Assembly: GCA_964457925.1 (NCBI GenBank)
Contig: CAYWGH010000024.1
Coordinates: 61,192-81,623, forward strand
DNA length: 20,432 nt
Origin: an uncultured Cytophagia bacterium
GTDB taxonomy: Bacteria > Zhuqueibacterota > Zhuqueibacteria > Zhuqueibacterales > Zhuqueibacteraceae
Reading direction: 5' to 3'
Under the pieces are notes generated by a model. It was given only the letters and a program-made list of their open reading frames with translations, was not told the origin of the DNA and did no database searches. The stretch's first letter is position 1. Every line of letters starts with the position of its first letter. This document shows, in pieces, positions 3,023 to 20,432 of the stretch. Both the position numbers and the translations under genes were made by a program.

Positions 3023-3370
3023 GGCAATTCTGGTTTATCGCGACGTACCTGAGCTGGCCACAGTAAAACCGGCAGATTCGTCCTTGAACTTTGCACCAAG
3101 TCTGACCGAATCCGCGTTGAGCTGGGGTTTGATCAAGACGCCAACTACCGATTCATCGAACGATCAAGATTTAAACTCGCGCCTATGCAACATTTCATTC
3201 CTTCGGGGTTTTGAAGGGCAGTGAGGCGAATTTCACGATAACCCTTCACCGCTTCGCGGCTTGTTTAGGACGATTATCGATTCTTTCTTGTCGTATCGCA
3301 GCATACAAAATTCAGGTCGTCCCAATCACCGCCAACCGGCCTGGATTTTTTATGTTGAAAAATTGCCCAA

Positions 3371-3405
3371 ACAAAAAGGGCATCCCGGAGAGAGACGCCC
3401 TTTGA
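3371..3405 (-). terminator. Rho-independent terminator downstream of the S41 protease gene (bidirectional in form)
   Basis: The minus strand reads GGGCGTC-tctctccgg-GATGCCC, a 7-bp stem with one mismatch (plus-strand 3378-3384 pairing with 3394-3400). It is followed by TTTTTGTTT and lies 38 nt after the stop at 3439. On the plus strand the same hairpin is followed by tttgattttt. Confidence 0.7.
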
Positions 3406-3438
3406 TTTTTGCTGTTCGCGAAATGAGTCTGAGCCGTT

Positions 3439-5067: not shown

Positions 5068-5271
5068 TCGGCACCTCAATTTAGTGGCATGGGTGAAACG
5101 CTGACAAATCAAAAAAACCGGTATGCTGAAAAGGTGAGAAGCCATATCGCGCTCAACACGAACACCTGCCCTGCTTTCCTATTTATAGCGACGATGCGCC
5201 GTCTCGCAGACCGATAACGAAAATGAAAGTGCACAATAAGACGCACACTCCTGCAAAAAGGTTTCGCCTGA

Positions 5272-6195
5272 TTACAGTTTTACTAAAATCGAAAAGCGGT
5301 GGGTGGCGCCCAATTCATTGGCAAAAGGCAAGTAGCCATAATCCAGTGTGCAGCGTCCGCGGCTTGCGCCAAATCCCGCGGTCAAGCCGCGATTTTCACG
5401 ACCAAGCTGATACCCAGCGCGGCCGGCCACGCCGTTCATCAGCCAATATTCCAAACCGGCGTTGGTGGCATTGCCGCCCGCGAATAAAAGCATGTTCTCC
5501 AACACCAGCGCCGCGCGCGGCTCGCCACTGGCTGAAGTCAATTGATAAACCCCGCCGATACGCAGCAAAGCCGGTAACGTGATACTCTCATTCACCAGCT
5601 TGCCCATCGTTCCCACATTTTGCGCACTCGCTGCCAAGCGCAAAGGCGCGGCGGGTGTTTGCCAATTTACGCCCACATCAAAGGCAAAGCCGTTGGCCGA
5701 GGTCAAATAAATTTTCTCGTAGAGATATTTGAGGCTTACACCCCATGACAAGTTTACGCCACGTTTGCGGCCGTAGGACAACGACAAGGCGAGATCGCGG
5801 CCATCAAAACTGCCGATTGGTTCAGCCGTTGGCGTTTCACGCAATTCAATATTGGGAATCGCCTGCGATGTGAGGCCAAGTCCCAACACGCCGCCAAAGC
5901 CGGGGAAACTCAAGGCGTAAAAATCGTGATTGATGCTTTCGAGCCATTCCAAATGAGTGAACGCCAGTTGTGTGCCCGAGGCGTTTGCCAATCCCGCCGG
6001 ATTCCAATAAATCGCGGTGGGATCGTCGGCCAAGGCAACGTATGCTTCACCTAGCGCCGCCGCACGGCCGCCCACGCCAATTTTCAAAAATGCCAGCCCG
6101 GACTTGCCGGCATCTTGCGCGACAGCAAACGCCGGCAGACACATGAGGCCCGCGACAACGCAACATTTTAGTTTCAACATATAAACTCTTTTCAT
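5272..6195 (-). CDS. PorV/PorQ-family (FadL-like) outer-membrane beta-barrel protein, paralog 1
   Basis: Signal peptide MKRVYMLKLKCCVVAGLMCLPAFAVAQ. This is followed by the family-typical N-terminal block SGLAFLKIGVGGRAAALGEAYVALADDPTAIYWNPAGLA. The rest of the sequence is rich in alternating Gly/aromatic residues and ends in an aromatic-rich terminus (HRFSILVKL). Confidence 0.7.
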   Translation of the reverse strand: MKRVYMLKLKCCVVAGLMCLPAFAVAQDAGKSGLAFLKIGVGGRAAALGEAYVALADDPTAIYWNPAGLANASGTQLAFTHLEWLESINHDFYALSFPGFGGVLGLGLTSQAIPNIELRETPTAEPIGSFDGRDLALSLSYGRKRGVNLSWGVSLKYLYEKIYLTSANGFAFDVGVNWQTPAAPLRLAASAQNVGTMGKLVNESITLPALLRIGGVYQLTSASGEPRAALVLENMLLFAGGNATNAGLEYWLMNGVAGRAGYQLGRENRGLTAGFGASRGRCTLDYGYLPFANELGATHRFSILVKL

Positions 6196-6269
6196 GCGTT
6201 TAACATTTCAATGAATCGCTTGCTTCTGCAGATTCAAGCTTGAACATGACGTTGAAATTTTGATGGCGG

Positions 6270-7718
6270 TCAATCCAACACCATCACCTTGCCCCAATGC
6301 ACGCCCTCCCCAGCCAGGTCAATGCGATAGAAATAAACGCCGTTGTGCACGATGTCGCCGCGGGTGTTTTTGCCATCCCAAATTTCAAAATAATTGCCGG
6401 CGCTATTGCGCACTTTCGCGGAAACAACCTCGGCGACCAACTCCATGGCGAAATCAAAAACTTTGATTGTCACTGTCCCCGGCGCGATAAGGTTGTATTG
6501 GAAACGAACGTGGCCATCACCGCGCAATTGGTTGTGCCGCGAGGGTGAGAACGGATTAGGATAGGCATACGTTCGCGGCTCGCCGTTCTCTCCGGCAGCA
6601 ACGGAGCCGCGCTGAATCGTCCACGTCGCGCCGTTGTTAGGCGTAACTGCCAGGCCGTCCGGCCCGCCGACAAACAGTTGATTGCCCAACACGCCAGCGC
6701 AAAAGTATTCTTCACTCAGATACGGTTGTTTTTGGTTTTGATCGACGATCACCGGAAACTTGGCCCAGGTGTGGCCGAAATCATCGGAACGATAAAGCCC
6801 TTGATCGGTGACGGCATAGGCGCTCGCGCCATCAAAGGCAAAATTGTGGGCAAATTCATTTTCCAGAGTCACGCGCCAGGTAAACCCGCCATCTTCGCTG
6901 ATGGAGACAGCGCGTGTTTCCTCGGGATCTTCGGCATTTACCGTCGCCGCCCAAATATATTCGCGATTGTTCCATTTTTGCTGACCCAGCGCAACCACGA
7001 AATTTCCGGAAATGGGTTGCGTTTGATTTTGATGGGAAAAATTTGTCCAGGTCAAGCCGCCGTCGATGGAACGATTGACGCCGCCGGCCGTGCCGACATA
7101 CAAGACGCCCTCGGCATTGATTACCGAAAAGGCGCGATGGTTCAAGTTATTGGCAACATCAAGGAAGAATGAATCCGGCGGCACGGATTGCCAGGTTTTG
7201 CCGCGATCGTTGGACTTGGAAACGCTGCCGCCAAAGCTCGTAATCCAAACGCCGGTAGGATGCAAAGCGATATCATATGTGACATTTTGCATGACGGTGT
7301 TGAATGGCGCAGGCTGCGGCACATAGGTCCAGGTTGCGCCGCCATCCGTCGAATAACTCAGCCCGCCGCCTGCCGGCAGCAAGCCTTCGGGCACCAGCGA
7401 ATCGATTGCCGTGGCGACCCAAATGATGCTATCTGAAACCGCCAAACCGGAAACTCCGCCGCGCGGCAAACCGTCGCGGTTGGTGTAGGTAACCCACGAA
7501 TTGCCGCCGTCATTCGAACGTGACAAGCCGCGACCGGTGCCCAGCCAAATTTCGCCATTAAGAATAACAATGTCGCTCACTGAATTTGAGCGCAGCCCCG
7601 GCAAAGGCATGGTCGTACGGTTTCGCTCGGAACCAAACTTCCAGCCCATTTTAGCCGGCGTTTGCGCCGGCGCGAGAGCGGCGAAACCGAACATCAGAAT
7701 CAAAAGCATGCGTTGCAT
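6270..7718 (-). CDS. Secreted BNR/Asp-box beta-propeller protein with a C-terminal T9SS type A sorting / FlgD-Ig-like domain
   Basis: Signal peptide MQRMLLILMFGFAALAPAQ. Seven Asp-boxes: SRSNDGGNSW, SYSTDGGATW, SKSNDRGKTW, NRSIDGGLTW, SISEDGGFTW, YRSDDFGHTW and a degenerate TPNNGATW. The C-terminal ~95 aa is YPNPFSPS...VRFQYNLIAPGTVTIKVFDFAMELVAEVV...FEIWDGKNTRGDIVHNGVYFYRIDLAGEGVHWGKVMVLD. This matches the NPF..-..I.Y-..V.I.I.D..G..V-WDG.N..G..V..GVY.Y pattern of Por-secretion tails. Confidence 0.8.
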   Translation of the reverse strand: MQRMLLILMFGFAALAPAQTPAKMGWKFGSERNRTTMPLPGLRSNSVSDIVILNGEIWLGTGRGLSRSNDGGNSWVTYTNRDGLPRGGVSGLAVSDSIIWVATAIDSLVPEGLLPAGGGLSYSTDGGATWTYVPQPAPFNTVMQNVTYDIALHPTGVWITSFGGSVSKSNDRGKTWQSVPPDSFFLDVANNLNHRAFSVINAEGVLYVGTAGGVNRSIDGGLTWTNFSHQNQTQPISGNFVVALGQQKWNNREYIWAATVNAEDPEETRAVSISEDGGFTWRVTLENEFAHNFAFDGASAYAVTDQGLYRSDDFGHTWAKFPVIVDQNQKQPYLSEEYFCAGVLGNQLFVGGPDGLAVTPNNGATWTIQRGSVAAGENGEPRTYAYPNPFSPSRHNQLRGDGHVRFQYNLIAPGTVTIKVFDFAMELVAEVVSAKVRNSAGNYFEIWDGKNTRGDIVHNGVYFYRIDLAGEGVHWGKVMVLD

Positions 7719-7761
7719 AAGATTATCTCATGGATTGAGCAGCGAGATTATTCGTATCAAT

Positions 7762-7781
7762 AAAATTGCTTGCGGCAATTT
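7762..7781 (-). terminator. Weak candidate terminator hairpin after the repeat-module lipoprotein gene
   Basis: The minus strand reads AAATTGC-cgcaa-GCAATTT followed by TATTGAT, about 32 nt after the stop at 7814. The stem is AT-rich and short, so support is weak. Confidence 0.3.
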
Positions 7782-7813
7782 CAACAATGATCGCAATGAG
7801 TTTTAACATTCTT

Positions 7814-8968
7814 TTAGGGTGTTACATTTATGACGTGAGTCACGGCACGGCTCAACGCGCCGTTCTTGTCTTGCGCTTGAAAATCAAACCGATATGTGCC
7901 GGTTTGATTTTGTGAGGTGATTTGAATGCGCAGCGAATAGCGTTTGTCGTTCGCGCGCAAATCGCCTTCCAGGCCATCATCACGCATGGCGAACGGATTG
8001 CCGCTCGCCGGTGTGCCATCCGGCCGGAACGAGTTGAAAAAAACGCGCGACACTGCGTCGGCGCAAGCCGAATCCGGGTCATTCGCGCTGATTGCCAACA
8101 AATAGATGTTCGGCGTGGCACTGCGACTGATGGTCGTGGGGGCGGATAAGTCAAATACTGTCGGCGGCCGGTTGTTCTGGCAGGCGATTAAATCGGTTTT
8201 GACGGTGCGCACGATCGCAGGGCCAACGCCGCCGGCGCGATCGACGGCACGCAAAATCATGGTCAACAAGCTGCGGGTATTTTTAAATGGCGAGGGTTCC
8301 AGGCGCAACCCGAAAACACCGTCTTGCGCGGCGCCGTCGCCGCTTTGGCCGTCATCGCGCAGGGTTTGAATTAAAGAGGGCGTGGGTGAAACGGCTGAAT
8401 AAATTTCCAGACGAACAAAATCAAGCGAGGCAATGCCGTCCGCATCATCGACAGTCGCGAGAAATTGGGCGCTATAATTCGAATCGGACCAAATCACCTC
8501 GGGCACGGTCAGTGCCGTGATCACCGGCAAAGCATTTTCATTGCCGGGCAAGATGGTGAGTGTATCCAACCGCGCCGGGCTGACATTGTCATCACGATCA
8601 GCGGCAATCGTTTCAAGAATAAGCTGACCGGTTTGATTTTTGGTTACGGTCGAGTCCAGGGGATAAAAAAACTGGCCATCTTTTGAAAGAATGTCGCCGT
8701 TGAGGCCGTCATCACTCATGGCAAGAGTCGCGAGCGTCGCGTTATTGCGGCGCACGGTAAGCGTAACGCCCGCCATGTTCTCTACGCCCTGCGGATCCTC
8801 GACGCGAACATGAATGCCGGCGGGATTGCGCGGAAATTGATACACACTTTCCGGAAGTTGCACCGCAACGATGCGGGGTGACGGATCCAGGATTGGTTGC
8901 GAGGGATTATCCTGGCACGCAATAAAACCCAACATCAGCAGGCTTACGATCAAAAGATAAGTTTTCAC
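7814..8968 (-). CDS. Lipoprotein with three tandem ~110-aa Ig-like modules, each carrying a DDG-x2-GD-x4-(D/N)-(G/K)-x-(F/Y) motif
   Basis: GTG start at 8968 with AGGA 8-9 nt upstream. Signal plus lipobox MKTYLLIVSLLMLGFIAC. The three repeated motifs are MSDDGLNGDILSKDGQFF, LRDDGQSGDGAAQDGVFG and MRDDGLEGDLRANDKRYS. Each sits in a similar beta-rich context (..V.V.D..G......V.L.. upstream and ..A.D..G..S downstream). Confidence 0.7.
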   Translation of the reverse strand: MKTYLLIVSLLMLGFIACQDNPSQPILDPSPRIVAVQLPESVYQFPRNPAGIHVRVEDPQGVENMAGVTLTVRRNNATLATLAMSDDGLNGDILSKDGQFFYPLDSTVTKNQTGQLILETIAADRDDNVSPARLDTLTILPGNENALPVITALTVPEVIWSDSNYSAQFLATVDDADGIASLDFVRLEIYSAVSPTPSLIQTLRDDGQSGDGAAQDGVFGLRLEPSPFKNTRSLLTMILRAVDRAGGVGPAIVRTVKTDLIACQNNRPPTVFDLSAPTTISRSATPNIYLLAISANDPDSACADAVSRVFFNSFRPDGTPASGNPFAMRDDGLEGDLRANDKRYSLRIQITSQNQTGTYRFDFQAQDKNGALSRAVTHVINVTP

Positions 8969-9024
8969 GATTCAAATTTCCTGTATGCAAGCGATTGCTT
9001 CAAAATAGGCGCGACAAAAGGCTT

Positions 9025-9993
9025 CTAAAACATAAACGCCCAGCCGAACACATGATCACTGGCAAGATCATCAGAATGCATGGCAAAGGCATAATGCAAC
9101 TCCGATTTTGTGCCGAGCAGGCCAAAGCAGTATCCGGCGCCGAAGGTGGGCTGGCCGTCGTTCACTCCGGCGCGCACATTGCCAAATTCCTGCAGGCGCG
9201 CAACCGCGCCCACATGCAACGTCGCATCGCGGAATTGGCGTTTTTCAACATCCGCCGCAAGCGTGAGCCACGGCGTGAACCGCGACACGGCAATGCCGGC
9301 GCGCATGCCGCGCGGGAATTTCTGTACGATGCTCGTGCCCCGTTCATAAACGCCTTCGGTTTTCCAGGTGTATTTCAGATTCACATTGGTCAACGCCGCG
9401 CCGAGTTGAATTCCGGAAACCGGTTGCAGCAATGCGCCCAAATCGAAGCCAAAAGAAGACGCCGAGATCGCGCCACCGTCATTTTTTACACCGGGGAGAC
9501 GATTGAAAACCACGCGACTGGTCAAGCCGATTCCAACTTTGGGATGCGGCTGCAGCGCGAACGACAAACTGAAGGCATTTTCAGAATTCGACAACGGCTC
9601 GAGCTTCCCGCCGTCAAAATCGCGCGCGTCAATATTATCAACGCCGGCGTGAATCCAGGCCAGGCTGATGCCGCCATTCATGGCTTGCCCGCCCTTTGCA
9701 TCCGTTTCCGGCTGAATCGGCACGCCCAAACTGAGAAAGGCAAACGTACGATCGAGCGTCATGGCGCGATACGATGCAGTAAACTCGCGGTGCTGAAACC
9801 ACGCCGCGCTCGCGGGATTGTAATAAGCGGATTCGTTGCCTTCAATCACCGCAACATAGGCGCGGCCCATGGCCTCCGAGCGCGCGGCAATTCCGCTGCG
9901 CAGAAACGCGCCGCTGTAACCGCCTTGACCAAAAGCGATCAGCGGAACGGCCGCAACGCCGATCATAAACAATGACTTCATTCGTTTTTTCAT
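9025..9993 (-). CDS. PorV/PorQ-family (FadL-like) outer-membrane beta-barrel protein, paralog 2
   Basis: Signal peptide MKKRMKSLFMIGVAAVPLIAFGQ, followed by GAFLRSGIAARSEAMGRAYVAVIEGNESAYYNPASAAW; this is the same block as in 5272..6195 but more diverged. The C-terminus ends in aromatics (VFGWAFMF), as in outer-membrane barrels. I prefer ATG 9993 to the TTG at 10008 used by the track. Confidence 0.65.
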   Translation of the reverse strand: MKKRMKSLFMIGVAAVPLIAFGQGGYSGAFLRSGIAARSEAMGRAYVAVIEGNESAYYNPASAAWFQHREFTASYRAMTLDRTFAFLSLGVPIQPETDAKGGQAMNGGISLAWIHAGVDNIDARDFDGGKLEPLSNSENAFSLSFALQPHPKVGIGLTSRVVFNRLPGVKNDGGAISASSFGFDLGALLQPVSGIQLGAALTNVNLKYTWKTEGVYERGTSIVQKFPRGMRAGIAVSRFTPWLTLAADVEKRQFRDATLHVGAVARLQEFGNVRAGVNDGQPTFGAGYCFGLLGTKSELHYAFAMHSDDLASDHVFGWAFMF

Positions 9994-10300
9994 AATTGTC
10001 TCATACAAGTATTACAATTTAATCGCAAAATTTCGCACGCGGTGCGGGCACAGCGCATCGCATTGCCGCAGCATTGCAGATTAAGGCGTTTGAAAGGACT
10101 AAGGCCGGTTGGAGGATGGCCCTGACCGCAACATTCCCAGAACGGTTTCTCATGACAAGCCGGCGCGCCGCGTTTTTGCCTGGCGAACTTGCTTGACAGC
10201 CGGCTTCAAATCCGTAACAAACTCTCGCGGTCTGGCTCCTGAGTAGGGTGGGTTTAATTATGATTTTGGACGAAGAACGGCTTTTGCGAACTGTTCGTTG

Positions 10301-11246: not shown

Positions 11247-12227
11247 TCAAATTGCAGCTTCGATCATCCCGCAGACATGGCCGCGGTGATTTTGCAGAAC
11301 TTCCTGCCGAAAATGCGACAGCCGGTTAAGCTCATCCTCGGTCAGAATCTGTAACTTTTCCAGGAGTGCGACCACTACTGCTGCAAGCGCGCGGCTGCTG
11401 CCATCAGCAATCTTTATCGCAATGCCGAGCGGCTGCGGCGCGTTGATTGCCAGGCACTCGATGCCTTCGGCTCCGGTTTTCGCCAGCACTTTACCGCGTG
11501 TGGCGCGCATCAAGATCGTGTCAAAACGGCCCTCACCGGCAATCAAATCAGGATTTTTCACAAAGGTCGAGAAGATGCGCTGCGAAATTTCATCAGGCGC
11601 GGCGACCAGGCCGGCGTACATGTGCGCCATGCTGATTATCGGTAGGGCAAAATTCGGCGCGCTGCAACCGTCAATCCCGAGCGGAACAGCATCTTCCAGC
11701 AACCCGGCGCAGCGTGCAACGGTGCGCCAGAGACGCTGTTGGTAAGGATGGCCGAACTCCAGATAATTGTCGAACGACAGCCCGCGGTTGATGCACGCCG
11801 CAATCATGCCGGCGTGCTTGCCGGAACAATTGTTATGCAAAACTGTCGGTTTGCGCCCGGAGGCCGCAAGCTGTTCCGCCACGGCGATTCCAAGCGGTGT
11901 GTGCACGCCGCATTGCAAATCCGCCGGCTCGCGCCCGATTTTTTGCAGGATGTTCGCCACCGCCCGCACATGCTTCTCTTCCCCGCTGTGACTCGACATC
12001 ACCACCGCCATTTCCGCTTCGCTGAGATCAAAAATTTCCGGCACGGAATCTTCATAAAGCGGAATCGCCTGAAACGGTTTGGCGGCCGAGCGAATGTAGG
12101 TGATGAACTGGGCATCGCCATACGATAAAACAAGATTACTGTCTCCGTCAACGACGGCGATGTGGCCATAGTGTTGGCTCTCGATAAGGTTTCCACGCGT
12201 AATGTTTGCAAGCAGGGCAGCGGACAT
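11247..12227 (-). CDS. L-asparaginase, Asparaginase_II family (class 3, Rhizobium etli-type)
   Basis: N-terminus ITRGNLIESQHYGHIAVVDGDSNLV. The SxxK motif IRSAAKPFQAIP, plus HNNCSGKHAGM and GIDGCSAPNF, match the Ser-Lys catalytic pair and the Cys-Lys-Cys metal site described for the R. etli enzyme. Confidence 0.75.
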   Translation of the reverse strand: MSAALLANITRGNLIESQHYGHIAVVDGDSNLVLSYGDAQFITYIRSAAKPFQAIPLYEDSVPEIFDLSEAEMAVVMSSHSGEEKHVRAVANILQKIGREPADLQCGVHTPLGIAVAEQLAASGRKPTVLHNNCSGKHAGMIAACINRGLSFDNYLEFGHPYQQRLWRTVARCAGLLEDAVPLGIDGCSAPNFALPIISMAHMYAGLVAAPDEISQRIFSTFVKNPDLIAGEGRFDTILMRATRGKVLAKTGAEGIECLAINAPQPLGIAIKIADGSSRALAAVVVALLEKLQILTEDELNRLSHFRQEVLQNHRGHVCGMIEAAI

Positions 12228-12297: not shown

Positions 12298-15200
12298 TCA
12301 CTCAACAATCTTGACTCTCGCTTCAGCGCTATTCCCCTGATACTCAGGATAATACATCAAACTCGCGAGCGCGGGCATGACATGATACTCTCCGGGAATT
12401 TGCGCGCGATAGAGATATGTGAACTCATGTACGCCCGCAGATATTCGCGTGGCGAAAAAGACGACTTTCTCGTCACGGATTTCTTTGTTGGCGTACATAT
12501 GCCGATCGCGATAATTCGAGCGTCTATAATAAGCATTTTCCCCCTGAATTGCGTAGCCGGATTCATCTTTAATTACTTCGACGCCGGCCGGCAGCGGATC
12601 TTCCAGCATGAAATATTCAAAATCAGCGGTTGAGGTGACGGTGAGTTTCACCAACACTTCCTCGCCGGATTGCAGCGTGCCGGTGAAAGGATTTTTGGCA
12701 TACTGTAAACCGCTGCCGCCGGGTGTGTGCGTGAGTTTGTAATACTCGCGTTTCACGCCGAAGCCCGTGGAACTGGCGCGTAAATTTTCGCCGGCGTTGT
12801 AATATGTCATACGAAACGTGCTGTAGAACTTGCCATTGCCGTCCTTTGTAATACGAATGTGATTTTGTCCCGGATTCAAACTGCTGCCATTGAGCCGCAC
12901 AGCATATTCCTGCGCCAGGGCATCGGCTTTTGTCATTTGCTTGTCAAGCACGAGTTTGTCATTGAGATAAATTTTAACATTGTAATCCGGTTCGAGTTCT
13001 TTGCTTTTTTCGAGATAATCGACCAGCGTGAAGATGATCATCGCCGTGTCTTTTGTCGATCGCCAGGCGCTGCCGCGCTTCTGTGTAAGCAGGAAGCGAA
13101 TACCTTCGTTGATGCGCGGGCTGGCCGATTTCACCTGCACCAATGATTTCACCGCAAATGCCGTGGTTTCGACATGATCGTCCTGCCAATTGTAATGCCA
13201 CGTTTTACCGCCCCACGAACACAAGGTTCCGGCAGCGATGCAGTTGTTTTCGAGTTGCGTCGCCAGCGCATTGGCAATTTCACCCTTGTTCTGGCTATGT
13301 GACACCAACGCAAGCAGCGCACGGGTGTAATCATTGATGTTGGCCTTCTGCAATTCGGCGAAGCGAGCGTCAAATTTATAATCAACCTGCACCCCGGCTT
13401 TAATCGCGGTTTGCAGCGCATAAAGCATGTAGGCTTGCGTTGTGGCATCAATCCACTCATAATTGCCGCCGTCACCGCGGCTGCCGAGCCCGGCAATTTC
13501 TTGTTCTACCAATTTTGCCTGCTCGAGCTGACGGCTCAAGGAATTCGCCCCGCGTCGCAATCGCTCATCATCAATTTGATGTCCCGCCTGCTTCGTTAGC
13601 GACAAACCGTAAACAACGTAGGCCGTCATGTAGGGATGCGTGTCGTCCTCTTTCCACCAACCCCAGCCGCCGTCGTTGTGTTGATAGCCATAAAGCGCCT
13701 TGAGACCCTTGTCCATCATCTTGGGCAGTTCATTCATCAACTGCATTTTGAGATTGAGATTCAACGTCTTCGCGGTATAAGCCACAATCGCGGTCGGCAA
13801 AAACCGGCTCATGGTTTGTTCGACGCAACCGTAAGGGTAACCTGCGAGATCCTCGAGCGCGGACAACATCGAAGCAGCCAACGAGGGTGAAACGGAAACC
13901 TGCAACTCCGCCGTCGCCGGATTTGCGGTAGCCGGCAACGTGATGGTATGATCGCGCACGGCGCTTTGCTGCTCAATATCAACCGCCAATGCTTCCGAAG
14001 TTTTCAGGCCATGCGGCAGAATTGGAACTGGCAATTGCATCGCATCTGAGACTTCATTGGTCAGAGCCTTCGCTGTCAATGAGGCCGTTCCGGTTTTGTC
14101 CGTGCGCACGATCCAATCCACGCGTTTTTCGCCGTTCTCCGGCACACGAATCAGCTTTTCCACCGCCGGCGTAATGCTTACGCCTTCACCCAGCAAGCTC
14201 ACATTCACTTGTTTTGCCTGAGCCAGATAATTGTGCACAACGGTTGAGACCGTCGCTTCATCTCCGGCCGTGAAAAAGCGCGGCGGCTCCATGCGCACGA
14301 TCAAATCCATGCGCACGAGGTTTTTGAAAATCTTCTCGCCGACTTCGGTGTTCGCCGAAATCGCCCGCACGGTTGTGCGCCAGGTGGTAAGATTGTCCGG
14401 AAATTTTACTTTGAGCTTGGCAATGCCGTTGCTGTTCGTGCGCACATGGGCCTGCCAAAACATGGTATCGCGAAAATCCTTGCGCACACGCGCTTCCTTG
14501 AATTTATCGGCTTTCACATCCGCAAAGCCGCTGCGCGAGAATCCCTCGGCTTTGCGCGCCGCCATTGCGCTGCCCAAGCCGCGCGCATACCCATAGAACC
14601 TGAAATAAACCGAAGCATGCGTGATCACCCGATTGTAGCGTTTGCTGTAAAACACCCGCTTGATCTCGCGCGTCATATCCGGGGCCAGCGCATAAATGCT
14701 TTCATCCACCATGCCGACTGAAAGCTCGGCGGCCACCCCCTCACCCTTCTTGTTCGTGACTTTGATGGTTAGTTCACCCTCTTCTTGCGGCTGAAAAATA
14801 TCCTCATTGAGATTGATATCGATGCTGAGAAATTTTTCCTCGGGAATGACGATGACATTCTTGCTCTCATTATAAAATGCTTCGTTCGCCAACAGCGCTA
14901 CGCCGACACTGAAGTTGGGTTGATAGTTCTCGTCGATCTTGAAATCGATCACTTGCGAGGCGCCCTCGATATGCACGATCTTATGCTCCAGAATCGTCGA
15001 GGCCTCGGCCGTGACCAATGCCCAGACATTCTTCACCGGCGAGATTACCAGCACATGCGCCGTTTCACCCGCGCGATAATTGGGCTTATCCGGTATGATT
15101 TCGATACCCTTCGCATCATAGCCAGAATAACCGCCGCGCTCACTCACCCAGCAATATTCTTTTGTTGAAATATTATTGCCGCGGCTGTCGATCGCATTGG

Positions 15201-17016
15201 CGGCGATGTAATAATAACCGCCCCTGCTGGTTTTAAATTTAAAGAACGCCTCGCCCTGCGCATTCGTCGTCACCTCCTGCGCCGCGGTTTTGCCCATTTG
15301 CCGCCAGCCCTTATCCGCAAACCAATTCTGCTCGAACGCCTCCATTTTTACCGTGGCAGAAACCGGTTGGTTTTTGAAATCCATGGTCTTGACCGTAACC
15401 GTCACGTCTTCACCGGGCGCATAAACATATTTGTCCGTGTATGTCGAAATCATGAACAACCCGCGCGTGACCACGACCTGCTTCGAGCCGATGATTTGCC
15501 GGCGGCTGGCATCCACGACACGCGCTTCGATGCGGTAATAAAAATCTTGTTCCGCCGTCGGCGCTTGATAAGTCAGCGTGAATTCCCCGTTTTCATCAAG
15601 ATACCCGGACTCGCTTTGCAACAGCTCGGCGCGATAGCTATAGCCTTCGCCATTATCTTCATCTTCATAATACCAGGCGTATTCCGTGCCGTACCACCAC
15701 GGCCGCCAAAATCGCCCGCGGAAGATGTAATAATCGACTTGGGCATTTGCCACCGGGCTGCCAAAATAGTAATCTGCTTTGATCTTCGCGGTAATCAAAT
15801 CACCGTTGGCGTACTGATCCTTGTCGCAGGTCACCTCGACTTTGTACTCCGGCTTTTTATATTCTTCAACTTTAAACGAGGCATAATGCGTGATGCCGTC
15901 AGGAATCGTGGTGGTAAGCTGATAACTTCCCAGTGGCGGCTCCTCTGCCAATGCCAACTCCCCACTCACCGAGCCGTTATCATTCGTTTTCAGCGTCTGG
16001 CGGTAAACATCATTGCCGCGCGCATCCGTGACTTTGATTTCGACCTCGCTGTTACTATAAACTTGATAACCAGCTTCCGTTAATTGCCGCACAATACTCT
16101 TGAAGTAAACCGTCTGGCCGGGGCGATAAATCGGGCGATCGGTATAGGCGTGCACGACATATTGCCGGCTGTCGCCGGAAAAATAGTAGTAAGGATCCGA
16201 CAGCACGAAATCGCTGCCCTTTTGGCCGAGAATAAGTCGGGCTGAACCGAATTCGTCTTCATCACTTTCGCTCAATCGCTTGGGCCCGAATTGCGCCAGG
16301 CCGTTTTTGTCCGTCACCACGGTTGCCTGTTCTTTGCGTTGCTGAATCAAGCGAAGATTGACTTCGGGAACCGGCTCACCCGTCATTTTATTGCAAACAA
16401 AAACCATCGTGCCTTGCGGCGAGCTTTTGGTGATCATGCCCAAGGGCGAAATAACCACCGCCGTATGCGCCATCAACTTGTCGTTGAATGCTTCAATGAG
16501 ATATACGCCGGTTTCGCGCAAATCGACTTCGATATCGCGATAGGTATACTCTTCCGTGCTGCCAAATTCCGTGATCTCCCAGGTTTTGAGCAGCGGATAG
16601 TTTTTGAGCGGCGAGAGCAGGCGGCTCGCGCGTGTGGCCACGGAGAACGCCGGAATGCCGAGCGTGTTCTTCACGTCGGTGCGCGTTTGCGGCGTCATGT
16701 TGTCGCGGAACACCTGGCGCTGATCGCGCTGCAAGCGATTTCTTGCGGCGCGCAGAATATCGACCGCATTCGATTCACGGAGGTTGAGCAATTGCTGCGG
16801 ACTGTGCGGATCCGACTGCCGCTGAAAAAAGGTGATTGGATCTTCGATTTTGTAGGCGCGAAAGAAAATCGATCCTTTGATGCTCTCCGCCGAAAGATTG
16901 ATCACGACTTTCTCGCCGGGTGAATAAATTTTGGGCGTTTCGAGACTGAAGTATTGCGCCTGCGCCAAGGGCGTTAGGCATAAAATCAGCGCGCTCGCTA
17001 GCAACTTGCCTTTCAT
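12298..17016 (-). CDS. Bacterial alpha-2-macroglobulin family protein with an intact thioester motif
   Basis: 1572-aa ORF with GAGGTGG (17027-17021) 4 nt upstream of ATG 17016. Sec signal MKGKLLASALILCLTPLAQAQ. Thioester block LAGYPYGCVEQTMSRFLPT, with CVEQ at residues 1064-1067 (nt 13827-13816). The following TED-like segment is YGYQHNDGGWGWW. The length and the many MG-like beta modules are consistent with ECAM/YfaS/MagD-type proteins. Confidence 0.9.
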   Translation of the reverse strand: MKGKLLASALILCLTPLAQAQYFSLETPKIYSPGEKVVINLSAESIKGSIFFRAYKIEDPITFFQRQSDPHSPQQLLNLRESNAVDILRAARNRLQRDQRQVFRDNMTPQTRTDVKNTLGIPAFSVATRASRLLSPLKNYPLLKTWEITEFGSTEEYTYRDIEVDLRETGVYLIEAFNDKLMAHTAVVISPLGMITKSSPQGTMVFVCNKMTGEPVPEVNLRLIQQRKEQATVVTDKNGLAQFGPKRLSESDEDEFGSARLILGQKGSDFVLSDPYYYFSGDSRQYVVHAYTDRPIYRPGQTVYFKSIVRQLTEAGYQVYSNSEVEIKVTDARGNDVYRQTLKTNDNGSVSGELALAEEPPLGSYQLTTTIPDGITHYASFKVEEYKKPEYKVEVTCDKDQYANGDLITAKIKADYYFGSPVANAQVDYYIFRGRFWRPWWYGTEYAWYYEDEDNGEGYSYRAELLQSESGYLDENGEFTLTYQAPTAEQDFYYRIEARVVDASRRQIIGSKQVVVTRGLFMISTYTDKYVYAPGEDVTVTVKTMDFKNQPVSATVKMEAFEQNWFADKGWRQMGKTAAQEVTTNAQGEAFFKFKTSRGGYYYIAANAIDSRGNNISTKEYCWVSERGGYSGYDAKGIEIIPDKPNYRAGETAHVLVISPVKNVWALVTAEASTILEHKIVHIEGASQVIDFKIDENYQPNFSVGVALLANEAFYNESKNVIVIPEEKFLSIDINLNEDIFQPQEEGELTIKVTNKKGEGVAAELSVGMVDESIYALAPDMTREIKRVFYSKRYNRVITHASVYFRFYGYARGLGSAMAARKAEGFSRSGFADVKADKFKEARVRKDFRDTMFWQAHVRTNSNGIAKLKVKFPDNLTTWRTTVRAISANTEVGEKIFKNLVRMDLIVRMEPPRFFTAGDEATVSTVVHNYLAQAKQVNVSLLGEGVSITPAVEKLIRVPENGEKRVDWIVRTDKTGTASLTAKALTNEVSDAMQLPVPILPHGLKTSEALAVDIEQQSAVRDHTITLPATANPATAELQVSVSPSLAASMLSALEDLAGYPYGCVEQTMSRFLPTAIVAYTAKTLNLNLKMQLMNELPKMMDKGLKALYGYQHNDGGWGWWKEDDTHPYMTAYVVYGLSLTKQAGHQIDDERLRRGANSLSRQLEQAKLVEQEIAGLGSRGDGGNYEWIDATTQAYMLYALQTAIKAGVQVDYKFDARFAELQKANINDYTRALLALVSHSQNKGEIANALATQLENNCIAAGTLCSWGGKTWHYNWQDDHVETTAFAVKSLVQVKSASPRINEGIRFLLTQKRGSAWRSTKDTAMIIFTLVDYLEKSKELEPDYNVKIYLNDKLVLDKQMTKADALAQEYAVRLNGSSLNPGQNHIRITKDGNGKFYSTFRMTYYNAGENLRASSTGFGVKREYYKLTHTPGGSGLQYAKNPFTGTLQSGEEVLVKLTVTSTADFEYFMLEDPLPAGVEVIKDESGYAIQGENAYYRRSNYRDRHMYANKEIRDEKVVFFATRISAGVHEFTYLYRAQIPGEYHVMPALASLMYYPEYQGNSAEARVKIVE

Positions 17017-17072
17017 ACTGCCACCTCAACGATTAGATTTGCCATGAATCCAAACAGCTTCTTTCGAAAAGT

Positions 17073-17954
17073 TTAATCAAGTATCTTCCAGCGATAAAAT
17101 CCCAAGAAGTATTGATTCTCCGGCGCGGGATGCCAGCGATCATCCGGATGCTGCAAGAGATCGAGTAGCCGAACTTTTTTGAGCACGCCAGGCTCTGCCT
17201 CGCGCGGGCCGGTGTGGTAAATGACGGCATCTTCGAGACTCGCAGGCTTGCGCGGGTCGCCGAGGAAAATCATCGAATGCTGCGGCATGTTCACATCGCC
17301 GGCATTGAGATAAAAAAGCAAATCACCCGGCTGCACGTTCTCCAGCGTTTTTCCGAGGAAACCCGTATTATAGCTTCTCATTTTTGCTGCCATTGCGGTG
17401 ACGGCAAACGTCGTATCGGCCAAATCCGTTTCACGGAACTGGCCGTCGCGCGTGCGAAAAATCTTGGTTTTGAGCAACGGCACTTTGGGATAATTATATT
17501 TCTGCACATCCGGAATCGCCGCGTCAAGCAGAAACGGCCTACTGCGCAGCCAATTGGTATCATGTTGCTTCAAAGCTTCACGATAAGCAAATCGAATCAA
17601 GCCCGCGCAATCGTGATCATCTTTGCGCCAGGCCGGATCTTCTTTATACAATTGCGATTCGGCGATCGAGACGAACCAGCGCCGAAAATTGCGGCGATCC
17701 TGCTCGTCGTGCAATTCTACCACATCCGGAAAACCGTCGGCATCGAGATCAATGAGGGAAGTGAGATCGTCATTCTTTGCCGTCGCTGCCGGCGCCGCGT
17801 TTGTCATGGGCGATTGGCTCTCCGGAAGGTCGGCGCAAGATTGCAAAACCATAACTGCAAACAACAATAAAAAATATGGATGCAACCGGAGCGTGTTACT
17901 TCGGGCCTTGAGTATACTGTCGCGTCGAAAATTGCGTCCCTCCCAGGCTGTCAT
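17073..17954 (-). CDS. DUF1175 / YfaT / MagC-like protein (NlpC/P60-like papain fold), probable lipoprotein
   Basis: RRNFRRWFVSIAESQLYKEDPAWRKDDHDCAGLIRFAYREALKQHDTNWL, PGDLLFY....QHSMIFLG...VIYHTGP and the C-terminal YFLGFYRWKIL fit my recollection of the YfaT family. Signal/lipobox HPYFLLLFAVMVLQSC. The start is ambiguous among ATG 17954 (inside the palindromic repeat), TTG 17885 (just before the signal peptide) and GTG 18095 (4-nt overlap with the upstream stop, the start used by the ORF track). Confidence 0.75.
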   Translation of the reverse strand: MTAWEGRNFRRDSILKARSNTLRLHPYFLLLFAVMVLQSCADLPESQSPMTNAAPAATAKNDDLTSLIDLDADGFPDVVELHDEQDRRNFRRWFVSIAESQLYKEDPAWRKDDHDCAGLIRFAYREALKQHDTNWLRSRPFLLDAAIPDVQKYNYPKVPLLKTKIFRTRDGQFRETDLADTTFAVTAMAAKMRSYNTGFLGKTLENVQPGDLLFYLNAGDVNMPQHSMIFLGDPRKPASLEDAVIYHTGPREAEPGVLKKVRLLDLLQHPDDRWHPAPENQYFLGFYRWKILD

Positions 17955-18020
17955 TCTGAAAGAATCTTGTGAGAAATCGGCACGGGCTTTATCCCTCACC
18001 GGATTCCCACGGAATGACAG
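17948..18020. repeat. REP/MITE-like imperfect palindromic element, copy 2
   Basis: ctgtcattctgaaagaatcttgtgagaaat ... accggattcccacggaatgacag. The terminal 9 nt (ctgtcattc / gaatgacag) are perfect reverse complements, and the arms continue to pair imperfectly for about 29 nt. The orientation and left arm match copy 1 at 1269. The element lies between the stop at 18092 and the DUF1175 signal peptide. Confidence 0.75.
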
Positions 18021-18091
18021 GAGGAAACAAGCAACGGTGCGTCGAATTTGAACGTGATAACTCATGGGACATGAGACGCATTGATAAACTC

Positions 18092-20248
18092 TCACTTCAT
18101 GCTCAACACCATCTCCCCATTTCCCTTTGCACTGAATTTCCCGGCGCCGGTTTGCGCCGTGGCCTTGAACAGCGCAAATAACGGATCAATGCGCAACCGC
18201 AAATCCGCCTCATCGAAGAGATGTGTTTGGCGATCATACGCCATGAGATAGCTGCGGTAATTTTCAAGAAAACCTTCGGCATTAAAGTATGCGACGGCAT
18301 TTTCCGGGGCGCTGAGCCGCGTCCGCAGCGCTTCGAAGCCGGGGTTTTGTGCAATGGCTTCCGCGCGCTGCTGGCCCGCATCGATTGCAGCACGCAGCGT
18401 GGCGCGATCAAATGCCGTCAGCAAATACCCATCCACAATGGCAAAATTCGGCTCAAAACTTGTCGGACTCTTGATGTAGTGAATGCGGCTGCCGTTGTAC
18501 TCTTCCACCTGCATTTCTTCCTTGGGCGAATAGAAATAAGTCATCAAACGCCTGGCATAGGCTTCCATGCCCGCAGGCTCAAGCAGACGCACGCCTGCCA
18601 ATTGCCGCCAGAAAAAACGCGGCCCGGTGGTGTCGATGCCGGCAAAGAAATAAAGCATCTGCCGGTCGAGCTTGCGCACCAAATCGCGCTCGAGATTCAA
18701 ATTGCTGCGTGTTTCAAATCCCTTGATGGCCTCGCGTTCGGCGCGCATGGTGGTGACGTATTGCCAAAATTTGGCGGGTTCAATCGCGGTGGTCGCATAA
18801 CAAAAAACAGCGTCGGCTGGAATAAAACGCAGGGTTTGAGCTTCGACCGGCGGTATTGTTGGCGCCGGCAACGAATCCGGCAAAGTCTCTTGTGGCGTGG
18901 CGACAGTTTCTCCCGTGATTTCTTGCAAGGCATTTGCAACCGTTCCGGCAAGAGTTGCCGCGCTGTGCCCGTTGCGGGTGATCTCAAAATATTTTTCGGG
19001 ATCGACATACGCCAACAAAAACGAAGCCGGCTCAACTTGCGGCAGTGATTGTTGCAATGCCCGTTGGTAAGCCAGACTGCTTTCGTTGGAGTCGAGATAT
19101 GAAGAAATCGCGCGGGCCAGCAACTGCTGGTTGTTGGAAACCACCAAGAACCCATCGACAACAGCATAGTGGAAAAGCGAACCCCGGCGCTGCGATGAAA
19201 TATCAAACAGCGTTTGCTTGCGATAAACCTGTTTTGTCACCGAGAGGTCGCCGCTCTCAAATTTGCCCAATGCGGCCAGCACATTCGTTACGGCCTTGGC
19301 TTTGAGATTCGCGGGGGTAACCAAAAGCAAACGATTCTCCTTTTGCATGGGATACGAGGCCACGCAAATCTCGTCGCCGAGAGGGTCAATGAAGTAATTA
19401 AAATTGCCGCCCAGCAAACCGAGTTGCTTGTCGAGTTGTTCCCACAAGGCAAATATTTGCTGATATGGCTCTGCGGCTTTGAAATCCTGCCAGGCTTGCA
19501 ACGTGACAAGCTGTTTGGCGAACGCGGAGTTTTGCAGCTTTTCCCAGTGCGTTTTGAAATTCGGCGCGAACAGACATATCTCGAATTCTGCCGGGACAAA
19601 CAAGGCCAACTTTTCGCGCCCATTCAGATTCCCCGGCGGCGCCTGGGCCGATTTCGGATAAGGCGTAAATTGCAGGTTAAACTCCGTTCCTGCATTTACC
19701 GAAACCACGCGGCCGTGCGCCGTCAGATACGCTGTATCGCGAAAGGGAATATACTCGGCGCGTTGCTGTGTCTGCAAGCTGGAATACAATTCGCGTAACG
19801 GCCCGGCCGCGGCCGGGGCGCGCAATTTCATCAACGCCAAAACCGCTTCTTCAACAACCCATGAGCTTTCATCTTTGAGTTTCGTTATAAGCTTTTGCTC
19901 GCGACTCGCCTGCGCCGTTTCAAAATCACCCAGCAAGCGCGTGGCCAGCAGGCGATTGGTGGTTTCTTCGTCATCGGCAAGTTTCAGCAGCGCGGCAAGT
20001 TTTTGATCGCTGGAGAGGGAATCATACGTCGTGCCGGTTTGCCGGCGCACCGCTTCGAAAAATTTTTCTTCGTCGGCTTTGGGTTTTTGCAGCTCTCGCA
20101 ACACGATTTGCGGCGCCATCACTTCCTGCATCATCGGTGTTTCGGCTTTCTCGCCGCCAGCTTGCCGCTTCTGCCAGAAAAAAACGCCGGCAGCAATTGC
20201 GACGACGAACAAGCCTGCCGCAAGCAGATAGTAATATTGTTTTTTCAT
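18092..20248 (-). CDS. Membrane-anchored hypothetical protein: N-terminal TM helix, short HEAT-like segment and a large uncharacterised periplasmic domain; possibly YfaA/DUF2138-like or DUF3352-like
   Basis: ORF of 718-723 aa. TM helix YYYLLAAGLFVVAIAAGVFFW. HEAT-like segment DEETTNRLLATRLLGDFE...LKDESSWVVEEAVLALMKLRAP. The remainder has no motif I can name. The family guess rests on gene order only, since the gene lies upstream of DUF1175 and A2M as yfaA does in the E. coli yfa cluster. I slightly prefer ATG 20248 (AAGGG 6 nt upstream) over ATG 20263. Confidence 0.6.
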   Translation of the reverse strand: MKKQYYYLLAAGLFVVAIAAGVFFWQKRQAGGEKAETPMMQEVMAPQIVLRELQKPKADEEKFFEAVRRQTGTTYDSLSSDQKLAALLKLADDEETTNRLLATRLLGDFETAQASREQKLITKLKDESSWVVEEAVLALMKLRAPAAAGPLRELYSSLQTQQRAEYIPFRDTAYLTAHGRVVSVNAGTEFNLQFTPYPKSAQAPPGNLNGREKLALFVPAEFEICLFAPNFKTHWEKLQNSAFAKQLVTLQAWQDFKAAEPYQQIFALWEQLDKQLGLLGGNFNYFIDPLGDEICVASYPMQKENRLLLVTPANLKAKAVTNVLAALGKFESGDLSVTKQVYRKQTLFDISSQRRGSLFHYAVVDGFLVVSNNQQLLARAISSYLDSNESSLAYQRALQQSLPQVEPASFLLAYVDPEKYFEITRNGHSAATLAGTVANALQEITGETVATPQETLPDSLPAPTIPPVEAQTLRFIPADAVFCYATTAIEPAKFWQYVTTMRAEREAIKGFETRSNLNLERDLVRKLDRQMLYFFAGIDTTGPRFFWRQLAGVRLLEPAGMEAYARRLMTYFYSPKEEMQVEEYNGSRIHYIKSPTSFEPNFAIVDGYLLTAFDRATLRAAIDAGQQRAEAIAQNPGFEALRTRLSAPENAVAYFNAEGFLENYRSYLMAYDRQTHLFDEADLRLRIDPLFALFKATAQTGAGKFSAKGNGEMVLSMK

Positions 20249-20275
20249 AAAAAGCCCTTGCATAAGTTTTGGTTG

Positions 20276-20432
20276 CTGCCTTCGACAGGCTCAGGCAGCG
20301 GCTATTCGTTGGCTGGGCCTGTCGAAGCCAACTTCCCTGCCCTCGACAAGCTGCCTTCGACAAGCTGCCTTCGACAAGCTGCCTTCGACAGGCTCAGGCA
20401 GCGGCTATTCGTTGGCTGGGCCTGTCGAAGCC
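20276..20432. repeat. Composite repeat: two identical 54-nt direct repeats, each an internal hairpin, separated by 14-nt tandem repeats; truncated by the window end
   Basis: ctgccttcgacaggctcaggcagcggctattcgttggctgggcctgtcgaagcc occurs at 20276-20329 and again at 20379-20432, identical by eye. Inside each copy, cttcgacagg and cctgtcgaag are reverse complements, giving a 10-bp stem. Between the copies, gctgccttcgacaa is repeated in tandem (20350-20363, 20364-20377, then running into copy 2). Confidence 0.85.

Follow-up and report, generated by a model that had tools for sequence, protein, structure and literature searches.

The 20,432-nt window of contig CAYWGH010000024.1 analyzed here (the whole stretch of DNA at its full length, to which coordinates without a locus number refer) comes from a member of candidate division KSB1. 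It contains a three-gene alpha-2-macroglobulin (A2M) module of the Mag/Yfa type, in which an intact CxEQ thioester motif is combined with a DUF3352/HEAT membrane anchor and a lipoprotein form of MagC, and from which DUF2135 is absent. The published scheme recognizes Type I A2Ms, characterized by a lipoprotein signal, the motif CLEQ and an adjoining pbpC gene, and Type II A2Ms, which possess no cysteine and are encoded in a six-gene operon (PMC3735191, PMC5764988, PMC12663445). The window arrangement falls outside this scheme: its A2M has neither the lipobox nor the pbpC neighbor of Type I, and with Type II it shares the MagC gene directly upstream and an anchor of MagB position and topology, but neither the loss of the thioester nor a DUF2135 gene. 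We regard it as probable that this is an envelope defense module of the Mag/Yfa type equipped with covalent chemistry. The features on which this reading is built, followed by those that flank them, are:

18092-20263, minus strand: MagB/YfaA-like membrane anchor gene, 723 aa, start possibly M6 at 20248 (Pfam DUF3352, HEAT_2)
20168-20236, minus strand: single N-terminal transmembrane helix of the anchor, approximately residues 10-32, preceded by KK (hydrophobicity, AlphaFold2)
19757-20083, minus strand: HEAT-repeat domain of the anchor, residues 61-169 (Pfam HEAT_2, PDB sequence matches, model)
18095-19735, minus strand: DUF3352 alpha/beta body of the anchor, residues 177-723, predicted periplasmic (AlphaFold2)
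17073-17954, minus strand: MagC (DUF1175, NlpC/P60-like) lipoprotein gene; the open reading frame (ORF; 340 aa) reaches 18095, and an alternative TTG start lies at 17885
17835-17846, minus strand: MagC lipobox L-Q-S-C (sequence reading)
12298-17016, minus strand: A2M gene, 1572 aa, with a Sec/signal peptidase I signal peptide
13816-13827, minus strand: thioester motif C1064-V-E-Q1067 within GYPYGCVEQ, residues 1059-1067 (sequence reading)
14446-14580, minus strand: candidate bait region, approximately residues 813-857, GLGSAMAARKAEGFSRSGFADVKADKFKEARVRKDF (between the Pfam domains at 638-777 and 851-941; composition)
11247-12227, minus strand: Asparaginase_II gene, 326 aa, next downstream of the A2M gene (Pfam, E 1e-110)
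20275-20432, no strand assigned: palindromic 55-nt repeats and 14-nt tandem units filling the spacer upstream of the anchor gene, up to the contig break (repeat comparison)

The ORF list and Pfam place the three genes co-directionally on the minus strand in the order anchor, MagC, A2M; with the MagC start at 17954, the intergenic gaps measure 137 nt (anchor to MagC) and 56 nt (MagC to A2M). The initial annotation had described three co-directional genes encoding a single-pass membrane protein, a DUF1175/NlpC-P60-like lipoprotein and an A2M that retains CVEQ behind a plain Sec signal without a lipobox. It had further described the partners as being of the Mag/YfaS type, and all of this agrees with the present data once the MagC start is corrected, MagC lying just upstream of the A2M and the anchor upstream of MagC as in yfaA-yfaT-yfaS. 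It was likewise right that an asparaginase follows and that pbpC is missing, since no ORF resembling a penicillin-binding protein (PBP), SpoIID, DUF2135 or DUF2138 occurs anywhere in the window. None of the four proteins (anchor, MagC, A2M and asparaginase) has a match in NCBIfam.

Pfam analysis of the A2M reveals bMG3, MG2, A2M_BRD, A2M, TED_complement and bMG10 domains, all above cut-off (E 1e-9 to 1e-33; TED_complement E 6e-18). The Cys1064 codon is TGC (13825-13827), and in alignments CVEQ stands opposite the CLEQ of ECAM, while E. coli YfaS reads GGVIN at the same site; the thioester of the window protein is thus predicted at the level of the motif. The signal peptide (MKGK...PLAQA) is cut at AQA|QYFSLETPK and has no lipobox, its sole cysteine being C13 (LILC) with Leu at -1. 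In 11 KSB1 relatives the residues around the cleavage site and the start of the mature protein are retained, and none of the 11 has a lipobox. A GAGGTGG Shine-Dalgarno sequence is found 6 nt before the ATG. The closest match is a KSB1 protein of assembly GCA_013359385.1 (93% identity). BLASTP bit scores of the window A2M are 184 for E. coli YfaS and 85 for YfhM/ECAM, and the protein resembles the YfhM and Sa-A2M structures (E ~4e-23). A neighbor-joining tree clusters it with proteins of the FCB (Fibrobacterota-Chlorobiota-Bacteroidota) group and Thermodesulfobacteriota, inside a broad set of MagC-linked thioester A2Ms. Its position between the A2M_BRD and A2M domains, together with its composition, makes the segment at residues 813-857 a candidate bait region. 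Export of the A2M through the type IX secretion system (T9SS) was considered and ruled out, as Pfam finds no Por_Secre_tail domain and bMG10 extends to the C-terminus.

The MagC protein matches PF06672 (DUF1175, now named MagC) with E 2.4e-64 and the solved P. aeruginosa MagC structure 7bk8 with E 1.1e-23. Across 16 MagC sequences from many phyla, the NlpC/P60-like core keeps Cys116, His226 and His247 without exception. PMC10318531, citing Zouhir 2021, describes DUF1175 as inactive and peptidoglycan-binding; for the window protein the NlpC/P60 fold is predicted, and binding to peptidoglycan would be carried over from such reports. The lipobox has the form L[LI]Q[SA]C across the KSB1 relatives. 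The 340-aa ORF is over-extended at its 5′ end, the likely start being ATG 17954 or TTG 17885; both yield a lipoprotein signal terminating in the lipobox VLQSC. The extension (17955-18095) encodes MSYHVQIRRTVACFLLSF, and in the relative P0123 the same peptide is the signal peptide itself (MSYHVQIRQAVARFLLSFAVILLQSC). The window lineage appears to have acquired an insertion of about 57 codons within the former signal-peptide region, which makes either start a tentative assignment.

The 723-aa protein had been annotated as belonging to no known family, an assignment that does not stand. It matches Pfam DUF3352 (PF11832) with 84 bits (cut-off 26.8) and E 1.2e-23, as well as HEAT_2, and DUF3352 is matched by 43 of its 50 relatives. 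One hydrophobic segment only, at residues 10-32, is present (19-residue Kyte-Doolittle maximum 2.26 at residues 11-13), and relatives begin with MKKQYYY, which suggests translation from M6 (20248). The AlphaFold2 model, built from an alignment of the 50 relatives, has a mean predicted local distance difference test (pLDDT) score of 86 and a predicted TM-score (pTM) of 0.81; it consists of a transmembrane helix at 13-35, a disordered linker, the HEAT domain at 61-169 and a large alpha/beta body. The HEAT domain is also indicated by PDB sequence matches to alphaRep/HEAT proteins (E 1.7e-8), by pLDDT values >90 for the model helices at 61-169 and by Foldseek; neither E. coli YfaA nor the shorter MagB-like proteins found in Myxococcota and Spirochaetota have it. 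Foldseek against the PDB returned only HEAT repeats, the DUF3352 body being without a match at E <= 0.001; a weak DcrB match was seen. No paper on DUF3352 was found in the literature. The exact 723-aa protein was not found in public assemblies, and relatives were used for the upstream comparison instead.

The gene occupies the yfaA/magB position, directly upstream of MagC (the E. coli order being yfaA-yfaT-yfaS-yfaQ-yfaP), and the Pfam DUF2138 model does not match its product. Profile comparison by hhalign of 18 DUF3352-like with 15 DUF2138 proteins gave a probability of 94.9% (E 4.6e-8) over 400 collinear columns; larger and noisier alignments gave 63% (E 7e-5), and unrelated control profiles 0.1%. 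An independent AlphaFold2 model of E. coli YfaA (pLDDT 77.6) shares with the anchor model the order of its elements, a transmembrane helix, β2-α-β4-α twice and β-α-α-β-β, in the register of the hhalign alignment. The transmembrane helix of MagB lies at residues 26-48 (PMC5764988). From the profiles and predicted folds we surmise that the 723-aa protein is probably a remote MagB/YfaA homolog with an added HEAT domain, and not a DUF2138 member.

Among KSB1 relatives the trio is found in the same order in seven contigs (L001, L002, L118, L119, L120, L098 and L121), so that recurrence in homolog neighborhoods, proposed with the initial annotation as a check, is borne out. The genes downstream of it vary (asparaginase, an extracytoplasmic function sigma factor, SmpB and RNase III). 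The signals are retained: the A2Ms have AxA|Q without a lipobox, MagC an LLQSC lipobox, and the anchor MKKQYYY plus a transmembrane helix. Directly upstream of the anchor gene, three of the five relatives with readable upstream DNA (L001, L002 and L119) carry a SpoIID-domain gene, separated from it in L119 by 4 nt; L001 is the relative whose A2M shows the 93% identity. In L001 the 285-nt spacer (3229-3512) from the SpoIID stop codon to the MagB-like start is filled by the same repeats that occupy 20275-20432 of the window, where no further copies occur elsewhere. Most likely the contig broke within this repeat spacer, with a SpoIID gene just past it; the repeats are the probable cause of the break and may be a REP (repetitive extragenic palindromic)-like element of the transcript. 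Compared with the SpoIID-type proteins that close the full operons of other phyla on their 3′ side, the KSB1 SpoIID protein shows 33-40% identity over 280-430 residues, and E. coli YfaQ itself has a SpoIID domain match (27 bits, Pfam cut-off 23). A DUF2135 gene (YfaP, MagA/MagF) was found neither in the window nor in the KSB1 loci examined, and pbpC was not found within the 8-10 kb flanks of L001, L002 and L118-L120. Because a SpoIID-type gene stands upstream in L001, L002 and L119, the module is probably not minimal, YfaP/DUF2135 being the only partner truly absent; the description of the module as reduced was therefore correct with regard to YfaP/DUF2135 and otherwise overstated.

Insertions occur between the module genes of several KSB1 relatives (L119 7259-7975; L120 4754-5356 and 6415-7929; L098 3573-5153 and 6345-7031; L002 4798-6616). 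The inserted genes encode a 238-aa protein of unknown type, a PDDEXK nuclease, a 504-aa WG_beta_rep protein, a 526-aa unknown, a TIR protein and a nucleotidyltransferase/HepT pair. In KSB1 locus L008 (7117-14184) the anchor and MagC are followed by a 1102-aa Sortilin/BNR-repeat protein in place of the A2M, and in L121 a free-standing transpeptidase gene is located 3 kb downstream.

The wider distribution was assessed by searching a single genome of each GTDB species with an alignment of MagC; 79 loci were obtained from the best 80 of 195 hits. Neighboring ORFs were classed with hidden Markov models (HMMs) seeded from the window and E. coli, samples being checked with Pfam, which revealed that the iterated "YfaQ" HMM actually tracks the SpoIID domain. 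An A2M gene lies directly downstream of MagC at 53 of the 79 loci, in at least 10 phyla. The thioester site is readable in 43 of these 53 proteins: 39 have CxEQ (as CTEQ, CVEQ, CSEQ or CNEQ), four have TGA-xEQ, and a motif-less protein does not occur among them. The proteins come from Myxococcota, Spirochaetota, Acidobacteriota, Atribacterota, Deinococcota, Thermotogota and further phyla. The order MagB-like (DUF3352-like), MagC, A2M(CxEQ) is present in at least 27 species-level loci of other phyla, 16-18 of the loci having the full set including YfaP and a SpoIID-type gene. In the sampled phyla a thioester A2M beside MagC is the common state, and the thioester-less Type II is the exception. 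The "hybrid" architecture, previously taken as something unusual, is not rare, given 39 CxEQ, four TGA-xEQ and no motif-less proteins among the 43. That it is an undescribed variant holds insofar as no paper describing a thioester-bearing Mag-like arrangement was found, an earlier mention in the neighborhood survey of Budd et al. 2004 being possible; it does not hold in the sense of rarity, as thioester A2Ms beside DUF1175 are common across phyla.

Several of these neighborhoods have features of their own. The last operon gene encodes a fusion of a PBP transpeptidase with SpoIID in Myxococcota (Cystobacter, Archangium), in an acidobacterial metagenome-assembled genome (MAG) and in a MAG labeled "Clostridia" (L054 16067-18058, L039 8590-10734, L055 16165-18246, and L056/L058/L060/L061), which recalls the pbpC link of Type I. 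In Kapaibacteriota, two to three tandem, partnerless thioester A2M genes occur (L005 5055-14908, L006/L007 1-14929), with a DUF3352-like/MagC pair on another contig of the same assemblies (L033, L072 7518-10792), preceded in L033 by a GH57 gene. In Leptospirales/Spirochaetales (L052, L065, L070, L078 and L081; ~7800-9900, minus strand) a DUF3352-like match occupies the strand that does not carry MagC, seemingly in divergent orientation and with an overlap at the start of the MagC ORF; it may be a real gene or an artefact of ORF calling. The genes upstream of loci without an anchor were considered as candidate anchors and rejected as unrelated (SLT/TPR, M20 peptidase, DUF2207, ThiF and epimerase).

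By comparison with known systems, the window trio most resembles the mag and yfa operons. With P. aeruginosa magABCDEF it shares the order transmembrane anchor, MagC, A2M, a homologous MagC, a bitopic anchor with an N-terminal transmembrane helix and an A2M with a plain signal peptide and no lipobox; in relatives of the window a SpoIID-domain partner of the MagE/YfaQ type accompanies the module. P. aeruginosa MagD has no cysteine at all, whereas the window A2M keeps CVEQ. The P. aeruginosa anchor belongs to DUF2138 and that of the window to DUF3352 plus HEAT, and MagC is a lipoprotein in the window, unlike in P. aeruginosa. The window and the KSB1 loci examined lack MagA/MagF (DUF2135), and the SpoIID-type gene of the relatives is upstream rather than downstream and without DUF2300. 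The first three genes of E. coli yfaA-yfaT-yfaS-yfaQ-yfaP are collinear with the window, and YfaS is the better-scoring E. coli A2M; however, the thioester site of YfaS reads GGVIN, the signal peptide of YfaT is a plain one, and YfaP has no counterpart in the window.

Full operons encoding MagB-like protein, MagC, A2M(CxEQ), YfaP and SpoIID(-PBP) are found in Myxococcota, Spirochaetota, Acidobacteriota and Thermodesulfobacteriota, those of Cystobacter fuscus (L054) and Archangium (L056) being examples; no publication on these operons was found. They share with the KSB1 module a thioester A2M after MagC, a DUF3352-like anchor and a SpoIID-type partner. They differ in carrying YfaP/DUF2135, in a 3′ SpoIID gene that is often fused to a PBP transpeptidase, and in anchors of 530-600 aa that have no HEAT domain and are often lipoproteins; their A2Ms are 29-36% identical to that of the window. 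Type I systems (ECAM/YfhM, Salmonella Sa-A2M) also possess CxEQ, a bait-region domain and the MG/TED/bMG10 architecture, and in their genomes, too, the A2M is linked to an enzyme of peptidoglycan. Their A2M, however, is a lipoprotein beside pbpC (E. coli yfhM-pbpC), there are no MagC or MagB partners, and the resemblance in sequence is weak (85 bits).

The four TGA-xEQ proteins merit separate consideration. This is a trait of relatives, the window codon being TGC. In the MagC-linked A2Ms of four genome loci (L012, L017, L025 and L059), TGA stands exactly at the thioester Cys codon (GYPYG-TGA-NEQ), and searching metagenomes for G-Y-P-Y-G-TGA-x-E-Q yielded 29 contigs (L089-L117, e.g., L091). In about 24 of the 29, the whole A2M frame is broken at that codon only, and at least five sequence clades are involved. 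In-frame TGA codons were located at:

L012: 14018-14020
L017: 14159-14161
L059: 14046-14048
L092: 6926-6928
L106: 11134-11136
L121: 4420-4422

For the KSB1-clade TGA forms (L095, L098 and L121), identity amounts to 70-72% with the window A2M and reaches 92% with relatives of the Cys form, and the database "proteins" P0014-P0016 stop exactly at ...LAGYPYG. In the main clades a hairpin resembling a selenocysteine insertion sequence (SECIS), with a G/A-GUU-type loop, starts 15-17 nt past the UGA. Its sequence differs between clades and draws on synonymous codon choices that the Cys forms do not have. The RNA downstream folds more strongly in 22 TGA forms than in 42 Cys forms, although the G+C of the former is lower (one-sided Mann-Whitney p = 0.007, with sequences that are not phylogenetically independent). 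No Rfam family matches the candidate SECIS hairpins. A tRNA gene in L098 was tried as a tRNA-Sec and rejected, as it is a tRNA-Leu. KSB1 MAGs with selA, selB and selD have been reported (PMC9012183). Macroglobulins are not mentioned in the text or supplements of the 2016 catalogue of approximately 90 bacterial selenoprotein families, and no mention of a TGA-form A2M was found in the papers on selenoproteins or A2Ms that were searched. Together these sequence features suggest a recurrent substitution of selenocysteine at the A2M warhead, that is, a candidate "selenoester" A2M.

How such a module might work is extrapolated from studies of P. aeruginosa and E. coli, from which the anchoring, complex formation, trapping and defense role assigned to it are taken. 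MagB of P. aeruginosa, alone among the Mag proteins in spanning the membrane, fixes MagD to the inner membrane and shields it from degradation, and a cleaved 100-kDa form of MagD is missing in magB and magC deletion mutants (PMC5764988). MagC of the same species binds peptidoglycan. The mag operon protects this bacterium against peptidoglycan-targeting type VI secretion system (T6SS) effectors (PMC12663445), which fits the all-peptidoglycan nature of the partners; the main targets could be proteases or wall hydrolases. On this model, the window A2M would be exported by Sec and freed into the periplasm by signal peptidase I. The MagB-like protein, with a cytoplasmic N-terminus, one transmembrane helix and a periplasmic HEAT plus DUF3352 body, would tether it to the inner membrane, and the MagC lipoprotein would couple it to the cell wall. 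A foreign hydrolase entering the periplasm would cut the bait region, the A2M would change shape, and the exposed Cys1064-Gln1067 thioester would cross-link the intruder. The SpoIID-type peptidoglycan enzyme encoded upstream in relatives would probably constitute an arm for wall remodeling or repair, analogous to PBP1c of Type I.

A number of results weigh against this reading. Co-transcription of the trio is deduced from spacing only (gaps of 137 and 56 nt), and promoter and terminator scans of the window gave sites no more frequent than in shuffled sequence. The kinship of the anchor with YfaA is remote: BLASTP showed no similarity between the two, for which reason profile methods were used, and the probability fell to 63% with the noisier alignments. 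The SpoIID gene is absent upstream of the anchor in L118 and L120, and none is present in the window. MagC-A2M pairs without a detectable MagB-like gene were found at about 23 loci (Atribacterota, Deinococcota, Acidobacteriaceae and Thermotogota), and MagB-like/MagC pairs without an adjacent A2M at approximately 18-20 (Kapaibacteriota, Chlorobiota, Bacteroidota and KSB1 L008); the partners are thus not strictly bound to one another. Outside KSB1, the A2Ms closest to that of the window (38-46% identity) are solitary or in tandem. A hypervariable bait was sought among the KSB1 A2Ms and not found: the segment at 813-857 is not hypervariable, and conservation is lowest at 568-592 and 236-260. Finally, the experimental basis lies in other systems rather than in thioester-bearing members of this module.

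Some of the same observations could be accommodated by adjacency without a complex, the A2M being a lone, soluble, covalent inhibitor of proteases in the periplasm and MagB-like/MagC, with or without SpoIID, a separate unit for peptidoglycan maintenance. The 18-20 genomes with MagB-like/MagC pairs but no adjacent A2M are congruent with this, as are the Kapaibacteriota assemblies in which the A2Ms stand elsewhere in tandem arrays (L033 and L005 in one, L072 and L007 in another), the BNR protein after MagC in KSB1 L008 and the unrelated insertions in L120, L098 and L119. Nevertheless, an A2M directly downstream at 53 of 79 MagC loci in at least 10 phyla is far above chance for a 4.7-kb gene, the homologous P. 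aeruginosa partners bind and stabilize their A2M, and the window A2M has no tether of its own, all of which renders independence of the two units improbable. A Type I (ECAM/YfhM-like) system with its pbpC located elsewhere is contradicted and can hardly be entertained; the CxEQ thioester and the similarity to the YfhM and Sa-A2M structures are what it would explain, but there is no lipobox, pbpC is missing both from the window and from the 8-10 kb flanks of five relatives, YfaS outscores YfhM (184 against 85 bits), and MagC and MagB-like partners are present.

A closer competitor, which we consider rather unlikely though less so than mere adjacency, retains the same complex and makes peptidoglycan-degrading toxins of competitors its main targets; the thioester would tag or immobilize them at the wall while SpoIID and MagC effect repair. 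MagD protects P. aeruginosa specifically against the T6SS effectors VgrG3 and Tae1 (PMC12663445), and every conserved partner is peptidoglycan-related, from the NlpC/P60 fold of MagC to the SpoIID-PBP transpeptidase fusions of Myxococcota and Acidobacteriota. Activation of A2Ms, as it is understood, requires proteolysis of the bait, however, and VgrG3 is a glycan hydrolase (PMC12663445); the sequence does not separate toxin targets from a protease trap. The reading that we favor remains that of a Mag/Yfa-type envelope defense module with covalent chemistry.

Outside the module, the window region 3439-10008 encodes an S41 CtpB-like protease, a UPF0164/PorV-like protein, a BNR/Sortilin protein with a FlgD_ig-like tail, two proteins without a Pfam match and a HAD hydrolase, and is collinear throughout with L001. 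This gene content fits an FCB-group organism possessing a T9SS, as the initial annotation had supposed.

Taking the window and its relatives together, we put forward, as a tentative proposal, that the module may represent an undescribed third class of A2M, spread over many phyla, in which Mag-type partners accompany a warhead that is reactive. The thioester-less Type II of Proteobacteria would have arisen from within this class as a derived branch, and switching between cysteine and selenocysteine within it would provide the first protein "selenoester" trap.

Experimental work on bacterial A2Ms is founded on two proteobacterial models, a thioester-bearing lipoprotein working with PBP1c and a thioester-less protein encoded in the six-gene Mag operon, and consequently reads "Mag context" and "no thioester" as coupled. 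The present locus and its relatives show otherwise for most other phyla; thioester loss in Proteobacteria looks secondary, and asking how the thioester-less MagD works is perhaps the wrong starting point. The MagB-like, MagC and SpoIID partners would instead be a general scaffold for a covalent trap tied to cell-wall enzymes, for which Cystobacter and Archangium offer culturable test systems. The selenocysteine variants, if real, would widen both the chemistry of thioester proteins and the bacterial selenoproteome.

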